A stretch of DNA of 64,000 bases, from the NCBI GenBank assembly GCA_010093605.1, contig MU004188.1:871673-935672 (forward strand), written 5' to 3'. This DNA is from Lophium mytilinum. Lineage: Eukaryota. Each line of letters opens with the position of its first letter. The first letter of the stretch is position 1. The position numbers and the translations under genes were made by a program. Of this stretch, positions 1 through 4,853 are shown one piece after another. A model generated the notes under the pieces. It did no database searches, was not told the DNA's origin, and saw only the letters and a list, made by a program, of their open reading frames with translations.

Positions 1-1259
1 AACGGAGCAACCGAGATCAGCATTCGACCATATATCCAGAGGTATGCGTTGAATACAACGCTAACGCTCTGCTACGGGATCCGTATGGACGCTGTCTATG
101 ACACTCTTTTACGTGAGATTCTGCATGTGGGATCAGCAATCTCACTCCTTCGGTCGGCTAGCGAGAACTATCAGGATTATATTCCTGCATTGAGGTATCT
201 TCCAAACAACAAGAAGAATGCATACTCCAAAGAATTACGAGGAAGACGGGATGCATATCTGAATCTTCTATTGGATAAAGTCCGTGTCATGATAGACAAA
301 GGGACGGATAAGCCCTGCATCTCGGCGGCTATTCTCAAGGATCAAGAAACAAAGCTCACTGGTGTCGAAGTCAGCTCCATCTGCTTGTCTCTTGTCTCTG
401 GCGGCTTTGAGACCATACCTGGTAGGTTTGAAAAACATACAGTTTACATCTCTGCACTTGAATGCAATTGAGTGAACCACTCCTGCTCATGTGTAGGACT
501 TGTTCTCTTGGATATTCGCTAACATCACTAGGCACTCTTACTTCGTGTATCGGATCGCTCGCAACACCTGAAGGACAAAAGTTTCAGGAACGAGCTTACC
601 AAGACATTAAACGACACTATCCAGACACCGAAGACGCTTGGACTAACAGCTACCAAGAGGAAAAAGTACCATATCTCAATGCCATTGTCAAAGAAGCTGG
701 CCGCTACTACACCGTCAGCTCGATGAGCCTTCCAAGAAAAACAGTTACCGAAGTCATGTGGAATGGTGCCCGAATCCCGCCAAAGACCATGGTCTTGATC
801 AATGCTCAAGCTGGCAATCATGGTAAGTACTACAACTAACTGTGTCTCAAGCCAAGCTCTCTGACACGTCTAGATACCGATCATTTTGGTCCGACAGCCG
901 ACAAGTTCGATCCCGAGCGGTGGCTCGAAGATCCGTCGGAACGCTCCAATTTCGCGGAAAAGCCATCGCAAGGCCTCGCTCATCTATCATTCGGAGCTGG
1001 AGCAAGAGCTTGTTCTGGGCAGATCATGGCACAGCGTCTTCTCTGCTCTTCGCTCATCCGGATCATCTCGTCATATCGAATCGTGGCAAGCGAGTCAGAG
1101 CCACCAAACACAGACTATATCGATTACAACCAGTTCAAATCGGCTTTGGTAGCGATCCCTCGAGACTTCAAAGTGAAGTTGATTCCTAGAGATAAGGAGG
1201 GTACTGAGGCCTGCCTAGCATCTGCAAAGGCTCGGACTAGCGAGTTCTACAAAGAATAA
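1..1259 (+). CDS. Cytochrome P450, phenylacetate hydroxylase (CYP504)-like; 5' end lies outside the window
   Basis: Exons 1-421, 532-822, 874-1259 joined by GT-AG introns. I-helix GGFET, ExxR (EAGR), PERW and heme motif FGAGARACSG. QRYALNTTLTLCYG resembles the CYP504 family. Confidence 0.88.
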
Positions 1260-1587
1260 TCATGAGACCAGAAGCAAAAGCTGACAGCACTCAAACTTCG
1301 ACAACCACACAAAGGCCAACAAAATTAGAGCATCCTCTACCACGTTAGCACTACTAAGGTTTATGGCCAGCTTAGTCTGCTCTTTAGTTGTTACATCAAA
1401 TTTACATTAAATAAAGTGCCGGCATCTCTATATCACGTGACGATTTCACATCGGTAAGATCTTCAAGACATCTGCAGCTTGCCAGCATATATCAATCACT
1501 GGCCATTCCCTATCCGCTTTTCAACGATTCTCTATCACACACCGTCTTTCGACGTTAGGGCGAAGAAGCCTACAACTACGATGAAGG

Positions 1588-1930
1588 CACACCGACATTG
1601 CGTTCGAGCCCGTGTCGGTGGATTATGTGATTGACGGATATGCTGGAGATCGAAAGAAACGCTTTCCTCGCGTCTGGCTAAGACTGGTATGACTACCTCC
1701 CTCCTCCCGTATCAGGTCTATTGGACTAGTTTCTGAGACTGGCTATGGAGATTCCTGTTATGCAGGGTCGGTATCGGTGAAGTTGGGAGAATGATGGTGC
1801 GATTTGGGATGATCAGAGCGTGTTTCATACTGCGACGCATACCTATGAGGAGTTGAGGTATTCGAGTAAGATTTGTACGGTAAAGTTGGGCGAGCCGTCC
1901 TTCGATCCGGAGAGCTTGGGAAGGAGGGGG
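1588..1930 (+). pseudogene. Relic of a TauD/JLP1-type alpha-ketoglutarate-dependent dioxygenase
   Basis: Colinear motif fragments HTDIAFEPVSVDY, ASG*DWYDYLPPP and LLD*FLRL...QGRYR*SWENDGAIWDDQSVFHTAT...GEPSFDPES, with in-frame stops, a frameshift and a large internal deletion. Confidence 0.75.
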
Positions 1931-2142
1931 AGGGGGATGTACTGTACGAAACAAAGTTCAGGGTCAGGCAACTTGGTCACCAAAGCGGCACCCGACACAG
2001 AATCACGCAAAGCTAGAAATGAATCAAAGTAACTGTATTACATTTGCATGATATACTAGAGTTCTTTCGTAGTATCATGCCTGTCCCAAGTTAGTCTATG
2101 CGTACTACCAAAGTCTGCTAGAACAAAAGACGATGTTGGGGT

Positions 2143-2232
2143 AATTTCAGATCTCCAAGGTGATTGGTTTTGTATCTTCAACGGAAGTTCCTCAGTAAGA
2201 ACACAGCGAAATAAGATTGTTCATCATTGAGT
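2143..2232 (-). ncRNA. Box C/D snoRNA, U55/SNORD55-like, with a second guide for 5.8S rRNA
   Basis: C ATGATGA (2227-2221), D' CTGA (2195-2192), C' TTGAAGA, D CTGA (2150-2147). The D guide TCACCTTGGAGA pairs with LSU UCUCCAAGGUGA. The D' guide ATTTCGCTGTGTTCTT pairs with 5.8S AAGAACGCAGCGAAAU with one G-U pair. Confidence 0.88.
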
Positions 2233-2455
2233 AAGGGGAAGAGGAAGAGAAGAAGAGAATGAGCTTACCAGTCATGGCCCGACCAGCGGGGAAGCACGTT
2301 GTTACCTGCCCCAGCAATGGATGCGTCAGCGAGTGTTCCTTGAAAAGCAATTTGGTATGATGCCAAATGTTAAAAACATGTCAAGGACCATCTGCAATCA
2401 GGCTTTGCGCCTTCGGTTAGCCTCGAACAAGATCCGGAGTATTGTTGAGGATAGC

Positions 2456-2560
2456 ATACCTCATTAAATCAGAATTTTCAGTGTTTACTGCTCATTCCGG
2501 ACATGCCCTCGTTAGGGGCAGCCGGTCACACAGTGTGAATATAGCTTATCATCATAGTAT
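2456..2560 (-). ncRNA. snR51: Box C/D snoRNA, snR51-like
   Basis: C ATGATGA (2555-2549). Guide TATTCACACTG before D' GTGA pairs with LSU CAGUGUGAAUA (yeast Um2729 site). Guide ACACTGAAAAT before CTGA (2472-2469) pairs with AUUUUCAGUGU. CTGATTTAATGAG is complementary to SSU CUCAUUAAAUCAG. Confidence 0.85.
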
Positions 2561-2669
2561 AGATGGCCCGTTGATCGAAAGGGAAGAAAAATATGTACCT
2601 TTGAAATCTAGTCCAAGGTTAGTTGGGTCCATTGATGAGACGCGATGGAATAATTGTTCGTGTCAGTCG

Positions 2670-2806
2670 GTAATCAGAATACGCTGTTCTCAACAAGTAC
2701 ATCCCCAGACCGAGCACCCACAGAGTTTGTACGCTCTGCTTTTTGCGGATGCTAGCCTAACGACGACGATCTGCCCGCCCATCGCGTTGGGGTATCATCA
2801 TATAGA
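2670..2806 (-). ncRNA. snR70: Box C/D snoRNA, snR70-like
   Basis: C ATGATGA (2801-2795). Guide GCGATGGGCGG before D' CAGA (2773-2770) pairs with SSU CCGCCCGUCGC, and the +5 rule points to the Cm1639-equivalent. D CTGA (2677-2674). Confidence 0.85.
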
Positions 2807-2915
2807 ATATGTGGCAGGGAATTTGGAAGATTGGGAGGAGTATATGTACCTAGTCGAAGAGAGGCGTTAGCTATGCTGTCGACGAAATTTGGCATGCAGA
2901 AAATATGTATTGAGG

Positions 2916-3012
2916 AGCAAATCAGACAAGGCTGAAACTAGTTACGGTAGTATCGACAAAATATGTTCAGATTGAGGAATGCCTTTCCATGTCATATTGT
3001 CATCACAATGCT
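2916..3012 (-). ncRNA. snR41: Box C/D snoRNA, snR41-like
   Basis: C GTGATGA (3006-3000), D' CTGA (2970-2967), D CTGA (2925-2922). The 13-nt guide AGTTTCAGCCTTG pairs with SSU CAAGGCUGAAACU (Gm1126-equivalent). Short terminal stem AGCA/TGCT. Confidence 0.88.
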
Positions 3013-3174
3013 TGGGGAGAGAACGAAGAAGGAGAAAGAGCGTGTACCTTTTGAGAGCAACGTTGAGGTCGAAGTTGATGATGGAAGGAGCTGGCTGGAA
3101 AAGAATCTGCGGCAATGTCAATTAGCAAATGAGAACGCAAAGCCTTCTGACAAGGTGCATGAGCATCGCTGGTT

Positions 3175-3249
3175 TGCCTCATGGTTTTAAGGTAGTCCTT
3201 CACGATGTTATAGGAATTGGATTGTTCGTAAGATGTGTAATCATTGGCA
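3175..3249 (-). ncRNA. Probable box C/D snoRNA with a guide to the LSU A-loop region
   Basis: C ATGATTA (3244-3238), D ATGA (3182-3179), terminal stem TGCC/GGCA. Guide GAACAATCCAA pairs with LSU UUGGAUUGUUC. The boxes are degenerate. Confidence 0.6.
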
Positions 3250-3718
3250 GCAGCGGATGCGTTCAAAATTTGCGCTTACCATGAGTGAGTGCCGAGAGCC
3301 AGCTAATGTTAGCTGCGAGACCGCTGCCACTGCCAAAGCGAGGCCATCATATGATAGCAACAACGCGTGGTGATGGCAAAGTTGTGGTGGTGTTGCGGAT
3401 GTTGGGTGGAAGTAAAGCTCCGAGAAAAAGTTCTGCAGTTGACCTGGAGCTGTGGCCGCTAGTCTCGATCAGATAGCGCCAAGATATCACGTGGGTGTCA
3501 GCATCGTCGACGACCTCACGTCTTAGAACTTCGTCTCACCTGGTTGTAAGTGCATTGTTTATGTCTGTTTCCATTCAATTGTCAAGTTTTATTTTATTTT
3601 ATTCTACTTCGTGATATCATACAGACTGTCTGGGCAGATTTGGTGGACTAATTGGACAGCATAGCTAATGAGAGCATGAAAGCCTCCTAGACCCTCGAAA
3701 GGAGAAGGTGTCGTTCCC

Positions 3719-4853
3719 TCACTTCTTCGCACCGTCCAAGTCCGAGTAGAACTTGTATCCGAAGCTACCCGACGGGTCATTGAACCTCAACTTCTTGTCG
3801 ATCGTCTCGATCTTCTTCAAGTCCTCCGCATCCAACTTGAAGTCGCCCTCCAAGTTCGCCTTGATACGCGACTCGGTCTTGCTCTTCGGGATGACTGAAT
3901 GACCGAGCGTGATACCCCATGCGAGCGCGACCTGGGCGCCCGACTTGCCGCCATGCTTCTTGCCGATCTCAACAAGGACGGGGTCATCCATGAGCTTACC
4001 CATGGACTTGCCAGAGTCGTAGATCTCGTTCTGATTGCCAAAGGGGCTGTACTGGGTGACGTGGATGCCCTTCTGCTTGTGCCACTCGATGAAGTCCTTC
4101 TGTTGTAGCCATGGGTGGAGCTCCATCTGGTGGGCGGCAGGGACCTGATCAATGTCAGCAAGAACCTAAGCTCATGCTTATGCACGACGAATCCGTGAAA
4201 CAATGGAAGGTACTTACGACACTCGTCTCCTTGAGTAGCCTCTCCAGCTCTCCCTTGCTGAAGTTGGAAACACCAATCGCCTTGACCTTCCCAGACTCTA
4301 CTAACTTCTCCATCGCCTTGTAGGTGTCGACGAAATCCGTATCTCCCACCTTGAACTTCCCGTTCGAGTCCTTCGGCATCAGCTCCTCACCCCTCGCGAA
4401 CGCCGCCGGCCAGTGCATCAAGTAGAGATCGATGTAGTCGACCCCAAGGTCCTTCAGCGACGCATCGGCCTCCTTCTCCACATCCTCGGGATGATGGCCG
4501 TGATTCCACAGCTTGGTCGTGATGAAGATCTCGCTGCGAGGAACGCCGGAGTGTTTGATAGCTGCGCCGACTGCGGGCTCCGTGCCGTAGATGCGTGCAG
4601 TATCGATGTGGCGGTAACCGGCTTTCAAGGCGGCGATGACGGCAGGCTCTTGTGCCTCCTTGTCCTGCCAGGTGCCAAATCCAATGGCTGGGATGGGAGC
4701 GCCCGTGTTCAGCTTCTGAATAGTGGGTGCCATTTTGACTTGTTTTCGTAGAGTTGTGGTAGAGAAGGAAGAGAAGGAAGGTGTTGTGTTGTGAAGTCGT
4801 GCAGTGAACCGCGGGGCAGATAAAAAGAACGTTCGAGTAGCAGCGGAAGTCAT
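3719..4853 (-). CDS. Aldo/keto reductase (GCY1/YPR1-type)
   Basis: Motifs GFGTW, GYRHIDTA.IY, ITTKLW, DLYLMHWP, IGVSNF, IPKS. One intron, 4217-4145. In-frame ATGs at 4853 and 4733. Confidence 0.95.

Follow-up and report, generated by a model that had tools for sequence, protein, structure and literature searches.

In the Euascomycetes, snoRNA gene cluster III comprises five box C/D small nucleolar RNAs (snoRNAs) in the order U45-snR41-snR70-snR51-U55, all of them located in introns (Luo et al. 2013, PLoS One 8:e58547, PMC3596301). According to that study, interior exons of the host were lost, two of them in all Euascomycetes, resulting in an intron-intron-intron structure that is removed by stepwise splicing, and snR51 itself holds a non-snoRNA intron ("intron B") between its antisense element and box D. 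Members of the cluster are also described from Aspergillus fumigatus, in which one locus yielded the clones Afu-455, Afu-277 plus Afu-294 (Jöchl 2008, PMC2377427), and from Neurospora crassa, where cluster III consists of CD17, CD9 and CD6 in a UHG-like host with short open reading frames (ORFs) (Liu 2009, PMC2780460), whereas the Saccharomyces cerevisiae snoRNAs of these clusters are found in unspliced primary transcripts (PMC3596301). Here, we analyzed a stretch of 64,000 nucleotides (nt) from Lophium mytilinum (assembly GCA_010093605.1, contig MU004188.1, forward strand, positions 871,673 to 935,672; hereafter the window, to which all coordinates refer), in which an earlier reading of the letters alone had proposed a hidden, intron-encoded form of the snR41-snR70-snR51 cluster, with one extra snoRNA at each end, on the minus strand of 2081..3279.

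We conclude that this locus is very probably the Pezizomycotina ("Euascomycete") snoRNA gene cluster III, i.e., a non-coding UHG-like host with five box C/D guides, one per intron, which in transcriptional order would be a U45/CD17-like RNA, an snR41-type RNA (Afu_455), an snR70-type RNA, an snR51-type RNA and Afu_294 ("U55"), here called sno1 to sno5. The order of the members and their placement in separate introns were found by way of Rfam, guide targets and RNA joints together, while the names U45 and U55 for the end members rest on position and on the U45A/C label given to CD17 (Liu 2009, PMC2780460). The proposed extension by one snoRNA at each end agrees with the order published for cluster III; the cassette, however, is not hidden, as its arrangement is already known, including the zero-length exon and the intron within snR51 (Luo et al. 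2013, PMC3596301). Like cluster III as described in that study, the locus has five intronic box C/D snoRNAs, an additional member at each end of the core, a non-coding host and, in the case of introns 2 and 3, adjoining introns with no exon between them, and it differs in that its U45-type member has degenerate boxes.

The exon-intron structure was derived from contigs of two public runs, X1, from the same organism and with contigs 99+% identical to the window, and X2, from a related organism, with contigs mostly 90-95% identical to it. Both were labelled RNA by guess only; since the introns of neighboring plus- and minus-strand genes were skipped, with GT..AG ends, in X1 contigs, we took these contigs to be RNA-derived. 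Among the joints listed for the X1 and X2 contigs, six were minus-strand GT..AG joints across the cassette, and each of the six introns combines a GT donor with an AG acceptor that is preceded, at 10-20 nt, by a branch motif of the CTRAY type. The X1 joints for introns 1 and 5 fixed both ends of the cassette where they had been placed, introns 1, 2, 3 and 5 were spliced in the X1 RNA where their boundaries had been predicted, and the RNA joints gave the expected lengths of 59, 0 and 9 nt for the first three internal exons. The fourth internal exon had been put at about 134 nt and is in fact 37 nt long; the acceptor at 2393 (ttgcag) assigned to intron 4 in the earlier reading was rejected, as it falls within the 3' strand of the sno4 terminal stem and none of the listed joints uses it. 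The five introns with canonical GT..AG ends and branch motifs stood, the fourth with a different acceptor, and a sixth, nested in intron 4, had been missed. As the S. cerevisiae snoRNAs of these clusters come from unspliced primary transcripts (PMC3596301), the RNAs might also be cut by an endonuclease from an unspliced polycistron, with the splice-like signals being incidental. In view of the six joints, the branch motifs upstream of their acceptors and the intronic location of the cluster in all Euascomycetes examined (Luo et al. 2013, PMC3596301), we regard such processing as extremely improbable here.

Under the cluster III assignment, splicing would free the introns, and the small nucleolar ribonucleoproteins would presumably be trimmed from the debranched lariats. 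The acceptor AG of intron 2 directly abuts the GT of intron 3, leaving an exon of zero length between them, and an X1 contig from which intron 2 had been removed runs into GTACAT, i.e., it keeps at least 35 nt of intron 3. Removal of intron 2 would set exon 2 before the GT of intron 3 and so rebuild a donor, after which intron 3 could be removed in a second step. This X1 intermediate (intron 2 out, intron 3 kept) corresponds to the commonest class among the 42 expressed sequence tags of Luo et al. (2013, PMC3596301), of which 18 lacked intron I but still had II and III, 14 lacked both I and II and 10 had lost all three, with none in the reverse order; stepwise (recursive) splicing and a single donor choosing among acceptors were both left open in that account. 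It was also observed that the acceptor of outer intron 4 (ggggcAG) is followed by GTAAC (2305-2306, minus strand) and that joining of the 9-nt exon at 2305 recreates a donor-like AAG|GTAAC, a possible second recursive splice point whose use would skip the 37-nt exon.

The host is non-coding, as had been predicted. In the 657-nt host RNA spliced in silico, with generous ends, the longest ATG-initiated ORF spans 24 amino acids, on which ground a protein-coding host was rejected; the spliced RNA has no substantial ORF, as in UHG-like hosts. The features of the locus are collected in Table 1.

Table 1. Features of the snoRNA host locus, with positions in the window
Feature	Positions	Strand	Support and remarks
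snoRNA host cassette	2081..3279	minus	five introns, one small RNA each
Host exon 1	3280..3392	minus	joint 3106->3280; loose X1 end at 3392 with adapter letters; 5' end approximate; short ORFs only
Intron 1 (173 nt; GTAAGC ... GCTAAT ... CAG), holds sno1	3107..3279	minus	X1 joint, contig depth 4014.7
sno1, U45/N. crassa CD17-type box C/D relative, degenerate boxes	3142..3250	minus	guide pairing and CD17 likeness by eye
Host exon 2 (59 nt)	3048..3106	minus	RNA joints at both sides
Intron 2 (198 nt; GTACAC ... GCTAAC ... TAG), holds sno2	2850..3047	minus	X1 joint 2844->3043, cut +5
sno2, Afu_455 (snR41-type)	2920..3010	minus	Rfam RF01860
Intron 3 (242 nt; GTACAT ... ACTAAC ... TAG), holds sno3	2608..2849	minus	exon 2 joined to 2607; loose ends 2609, 3048
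sno3, snR70-type, about 130 nt	2670..2806	minus	D' guide target
Micro-exon (9 nt), ATTTCAAAG	2599..2607	minus	X1 contigs hold it between exon 2 and 2305
Outer intron 4 (293 nt; GTACAT ... GCTGAC ... CAG), holds sno4 and the nested intron	2306..2598	minus	X1 record joins 2307/2305 to 3048 via the micro-exon letters
sno4, snR51-type, about 122 nt once spliced	2388..2566	minus	Rfam, guides and RNA joint
Nested intron (57 nt; GTATGC ... GCTAAC ... AAG)	2403..2459	minus	joint 2402->2460 in X1 and X2
Host exon (37 nt)	2269..2305	minus	micro-exon joined to 2305; joint 2079->2268
Intron 5 (188 nt; GTAAGC ... ACTAAC ... CAG), holds sno5	2081..2268	minus	X1 joint 2079->2268, cut +1
sno5, Afu_294 ("U55" end member by position)	2144..2231	minus	Rfam RF01506
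Host last exon	1850..2080	minus	X1 record 1..2079 then 2268; 3' end approximate, overlaps, in one X1 contig, the 3' end of the convergent plus-strand gene

Four exact RUGAUGA boxes lie on the minus strand within 1.2 kb (at 3006, 2801, 2555 and 2227), each followed by CUGA at a snoRNA-like distance of 81-139 nt; with 34 copies of RUGAUGA on the two strands of the whole 64-kb window, about 0.3 would be expected in the cassette. The claim that every intron holds one box C/D RNA was borne out for sno2 to sno5, and sno1 proved to lack canonical boxes. At the gathering threshold, Rfam found two families in the whole window, Afu_455 and Afu_294, both of them inside the cassette; the proposed Rfam check was thus passed by sno2 and sno5, while sno4 stayed below threshold and sno1 and sno3 were unmatched. 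Rfam matches to snoR127 (plus strand), snoR442 and SOX2OT at E values of 2-7 were taken as chance.

To assign targets, guides were compared with the ribosomal RNAs (rRNAs) of metagenome contigs carrying complete or partial eukaryotic rDNA units (L002, L057, L018, L079 and L006), which were picked up with the sno5 D' guide, scanned as its reverse complement with the wobble position left open, and in which the small subunit (SSU), 5.8S and large subunit (LSU) rRNAs were annotated by Rfam. (Within the LSU rRNA of L079, a group I intron was also seen at 149-504 of the minus strand; RF00028, 51.5 bits.) For the background, we took all other CTGA sites of the window (458) and scored the 20 nt before each of them against the L002 rRNAs, which gave a maximum score of 13 and a 95th percentile of 10.5. 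The D guide of sno2 (13.5), the D' guide of sno5 (16) and the D guide of spliced sno4 (14) outscored all 458 background sites, and the score of the sno5 D guide (12.5) was reached by 3 of them. Complementarity of 11-16 nt to rRNA had been claimed; we found guides of 11-17 base pairs (bp) to Rfam-annotated rRNA, the score of the sno3 D' guide not being significant by itself.

The two members recognized by Rfam matched their models from end to end. For sno2, RF01860 gave 69.9 bits (gathering score, 48) over model positions 1-92 of 92; its C box is at 3006..3000, its D' box (CUGA) at 2970 and its D box (CUGA) at 2925, and the D guide forms 14 bp (13 Watson-Crick [WC] and 1 GU) with SSU GCAAGGCTGAAACT. 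The Rfam consensus of Afu_455 and, as judged by eye, N. crassa CD9 also have its D' element GGCAUUCCUCAA (2971-2984, minus strand), for which no duplex of at least 9 pairs at a sensible site was found in the rRNAs scanned. For sno5, RF01506 gave 67.6 bits (gathering score, 43) over model positions 1-83 of 83, with the C box at 2227..2221, the D' CUGA at 2195 and the D CUGA at 2150; the D' guide pairs over 17 bp (15 WC and 2 GU) with 5.8S AAGAACGCAGCGAAATG and the D guide over 13 bp (12 WC and 1 GU) with LSU GTCTCCAAGGTGA. Just past the sno5 C box, UGAACAAUCUU (2213-2223, minus strand) can also form 10 WC and 1 GU pairs with the L002 sequence AGGATTGTTCA in the A-loop stem of the LSU, overlapping the region that the sno1 D' guide can pair with, which may be extra base-pairing or chance.

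The third intron holds sno3, with its C box at 2801..2795, its D' box (CAGA) at 2773 and its D box (CUGA) at 2677. Its D' guide GCGAUGGGCGG forms 10 WC and 1 GU pairs with SSU CCGCCCGTCGC and, as expected of an snR70, falls on the 18S decoding-site sequence CCGCCCGUCGC, with position 5 at the first C of CCC, which is C1642 of the L002 SSU and which we take to be C1639 in yeast numbering. For the D guide of sno3, no target above background was found.

Two of the Rfam families that we searched with were built on A. fumigatus RNAs and matched here, and the guides at this locus fall on the homologues of sites predicted for the A. fumigatus cluster, which lies between Afu1g09740 and Afu1g09760: 18S Gm1122 for Afu-455; 26S Um2706 and 18S Am97 for Afu-277, for which 5.8S Cm47 was listed as well; and 26S Cm1851 and 5.8S Am43 for Afu-294 (Jöchl 2008, PMC2377427). 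That locus gave three cloned C/D RNAs together with a clone of 28 nt, Afu-336, whose signal on Northern blots was at 130 nt; it differs in being listed as "intergenic", with no description of its host gene and introns in that paper. From the pairings, the L. mytilinum cluster is predicted to direct methylation in 18S to the equivalents of A100, G1126 and C1639 and in 25S to those of U2724 and U2729, as well as to the initial G of UUGGAUUG ahead of the A-loop, to the C within GUCUCCAAGG and, in 5.8S, to the A of GAAGAACGC.

The fourth member, sno4, differs from the others in being interrupted. Its C box is at 2555..2549, followed by a D' box (GUGA) at 2529 with the guide AUAUUCACACUGU, an inner CUGA at 2472 with the guide ACACUGAAAAUU and an outer D box (CUGA) at 2401..2398. 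When the unspliced sequence was used, the Rfam snR51 model (RF01214) gave 38.5 bits and so did not reach its gathering score of 44, and snR67 gave 30.5 bits against a gathering score of 55; as guide and D box are set apart by the 57-nt nested intron, the D box of the snR51 model came to align to that intron's donor. In the genome, CUGAUUUAAUGAG (13 nt, 2472..2460) is fully complementary to positions 97-109 of the L002 SSU and is then followed by GUAUGC instead of a D box. The 57-nt intron that intervenes, which has the position described for intron B, was spliced in both X1 and X2; in X1, its joint had a depth of 728.7 with 125 nt on each side. After its removal, the guide is followed by a C and then by CUGA, forms 14 WC pairs with SSU GCTCATTAAATCAG and places position 5 on A100 of the L002 SSU. 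Only with the nested intron gone does the 18S-A100 guide stand beside the CUGA D box. In the minimum free energy (MFE) fold of spliced sno4, a long terminal stem forms that includes CCAUCU (2566..2561) paired with AGAUGG (2393..2388).

The X1 and X2 contigs from which the nested intron had been spliced keep flanking outer-intron sequence, including the unspliced acceptor at 2306, and these retained flanks fit with the nested intron being removed before the outer one. The nested intron would have to leave while the snR51-type RNA is still part of the pre-RNA, and its removal would bring the 18S-A100 guide to within one nt of the CUGA D box and allow the terminal stem to close. The original prediction held that splicing serves only to release guides; at this member, splicing out the nested intron brings the guide and D box of the snR51-type RNA together as well.

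Both targets of yeast snR51, a guide for 18S Am100 and 25S U2729 (PMC3938493), have their counterparts in sno4: by the fifth-nucleotide rule, its D' guide is at the equivalent of 25S U2729 and its D guide at 18S A100. An antisense oligonucleotide to yeast 18S A76-T125 holds the same 14 letters as the spliced sno4 guide, with position 5 falling on A100, a site that is only partly methylated in yeast (PMC3938493). The D' guide forms 11 WC pairs with CAGTGTGAATA, and the inner guide forms 12 bp (11 WC and 1 GU), with a target U located 5 nt upstream of the D' target, in both cases in fungal-type LSU fragments. We turned to these fragments since, at the 25S site of sno4, the three metagenome LSUs that cover it differ in their local sequence. 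They came from an extra search of genome contigs with a 15-nt motif merged from both guides, in which four short contigs (L131, L184, L185 and L230) aligned to the L002 LSU at 79-89% identity with the motif at the homologous place. The four contigs belong to assemblies labelled Nibrella, Ferrimonas, Sphingomonas and one more bacterium, in which these fungal-type sequences are probably contaminants.

The order of the S. cerevisiae polycistron snR41-snR70-snR51 is the same as here, the sno4 D' guide shows identity to the Rfam snR51 consensus along 13 nt, with the A100 guide kept as well; the yeast transcript differs in being unspliced, in having three members and in lacking a nested intron. In N. 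crassa cluster III, the D guide of CD9 resembles that of sno2, and CD6 shares with sno4 a similar D' guide and the sequence ending in CUGAUUUAAUGAG followed by "gua". Liu (2009, PMC2780460) called CD6 "exon-encoded", with the inner CUGA taken as its D box. A spliceosomal intron that interrupts a box C/D-class snoRNA gene is also known from fungal U3 (PMC5832005), but U3 has a transcript of its own and does not guide methylation, whereas the interrupted snoRNA here sits within another intron.

In sno4, each of two D boxes has a guide beside it, the inner one with 12 bp to the LSU and the outer one with 14 bp to the SSU, which raises another reading, in which splicing of the nested intron acts as a switch: from the unspliced RNA, a short snoRNA would be made that stops at the inner CUGA (2472) and is directed at the equivalents of 25S U2724 and U2729, and from the spliced RNA a long form that extends to the outer CUGA (2401) and adds 18S A100. 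If so, splicing efficiency would set the extent of A100 methylation. The 18 nt that end with the inner CUGA agree with the 3' end of the snR67 consensus in Rfam, and a D target common to snR67 and the snR51 family, namely S. cerevisiae 25S-2724, is reported for Onygenales and some Dothideomycetes (Canzler 2018, PMC5824354), a target that corresponds to the inner guide of sno4. In the same direction, what was cloned of N. crassa CD6 (76 nt) stops at AAUGAG, right before the "gua" of the intron (PMC2780460), and A. fumigatus Afu-277, a predicted 18S Am97 guide, has a length of 100 nt (PMC2377427). We nevertheless consider the switch unlikely. The ends of the sno4 RNA at this locus are predicted only, the terminal stem of the short form is weak, with the MFE structure pairing the far ends in both forms, and the longest pairing run between the 8-nt flanks at the inner CUGA is only 3. 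Moreover, the inner element of N. crassa, in contrast to the inner guide here, is by eye not complementary to 25S, and the inner CUGA also belongs to the yeast A100 guide (Rfam snR51 consensus), so that it may be a passenger. We therefore continue to treat sno4 as a split snR51-type guide that is completed by splicing.

Several points weigh against the assignment of the locus to cluster III with five guides. The rRNA targets are not from this organism; the 15-nt motif was built from the guides, so that its match is not independent and only the LSU location is, and the four contigs that it found are LSU fragments, probable contaminants in bacterial assemblies. Other isoforms may exist beyond the listed joints, and the mature snoRNAs of the locus are predicted. 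Where two interior exons are missing in the clusters of Luo et al. (2013, PMC3596301), one exon is of zero length here and the second is a retained 9-nt exon. For sno3, no match to any snR70 family was obtained at E<=10 in a scan of 1700-3700, and the X2 stretch 2744-2829, which spans its C box and guide, was of the same length but diverged; as its D' score of 10.5 was reached by 29 of the 458 background sites and is not significant alone, its guide is supported by where it lands and not by its score. Finally, sno1 has no canonical C and D boxes: CUGA is absent from intron 1, as is the 18S D guide of N. crassa CD17 (the complement of GGTAATTCTAGAG).

In place of the box C/D arrangement of RUGAUGA, CUGA and a terminal stem, sno1 has a C-like UGAUUA (3243..3238), where UGAUGA would be expected, a D' box CCUA (3214..3211) and AUGA (3182..3179) or CAGA (3149..3146) as its possible D box. 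It is possible, if somewhat doubtful, that only four of the five members are working guides and that sno1 is a decaying relic of the U45/CD17 type, a mere filler of its intron. In addition to its boxes, the loss of the 18S-Am154 guide that is present in CD17 fits with decay. Rfam gave no match to sno1 on the minus strand at E<=10, the best duplexes ahead of its AUGA and CAGA either do not rise above the background or have a mismatch at position 4, beside position 5, and X2 contigs at >=90% identity do not cover 3001-3600, the uncovered parts being uninformative. On the other hand, a 22-nt stretch of sno1, CUUAC..GAACAAUCCAAUUC.UA, is by eye nearly identical to CD17, which places the likeness in the 5' half of the RNA, and GCC/GGC terminal pairing flanks both candidate D boxes. 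The D' guide GAACAAUCCAAUU still forms 12 bp (11 WC and 1 GU) with the LSU A-loop stem GTTGGATTGTTC (in the L131 and L230 fragments and the L057 LSU), and its position 5 falls on the same LSU G that was assigned to CD17 (26S-Gm2875; Liu 2009, PMC2780460). Furthermore, ATGA was accepted as a D box by Luo et al. (2013, PMC3596301). We therefore keep sno1 as a U45/CD17-type member of the cluster, with degenerate boxes.

On the plus strand, an X1 contig shows a gene that is spliced (421-530 and 822-872 removed) up to 2079 and then joined to 2268 of the host; the two may be convergent transcripts that overlap at their 3' ends or may have been merged by the assembler. The ORFs of this gene (window 1-2079) are by eye cytochrome P450-like, a putative assignment. 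The same-strand neighbor upstream of the host (3613-4853, minus strand) is also spliced, with the intron 4143-4215 removed in X1, and has ORFs that look aldo-keto reductase-like, again putatively. Between the end of this neighbor and the start of the host gene lies an A/T-rich tract (3579-3612).

What the present analysis adds to the published cluster is RNA-contig support for the nested intron in two further organisms, an intermediate with intron 2 removed (in X1), a corrected exon map and a degenerate-looking U45-type member. Hosts of this kind usually go unannotated, and a split snR51 is missed by Rfam, which is a lesson for annotation. As for the biology of these fungi, the locus is a case in which "one snoRNA per intron" has been kept in filamentous fungi as exons shrank to zero, and it illustrates that the assembly of a methylation guide can itself rely on splicing; Luo et al. 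(2013, PMC3596301) have already published both points.

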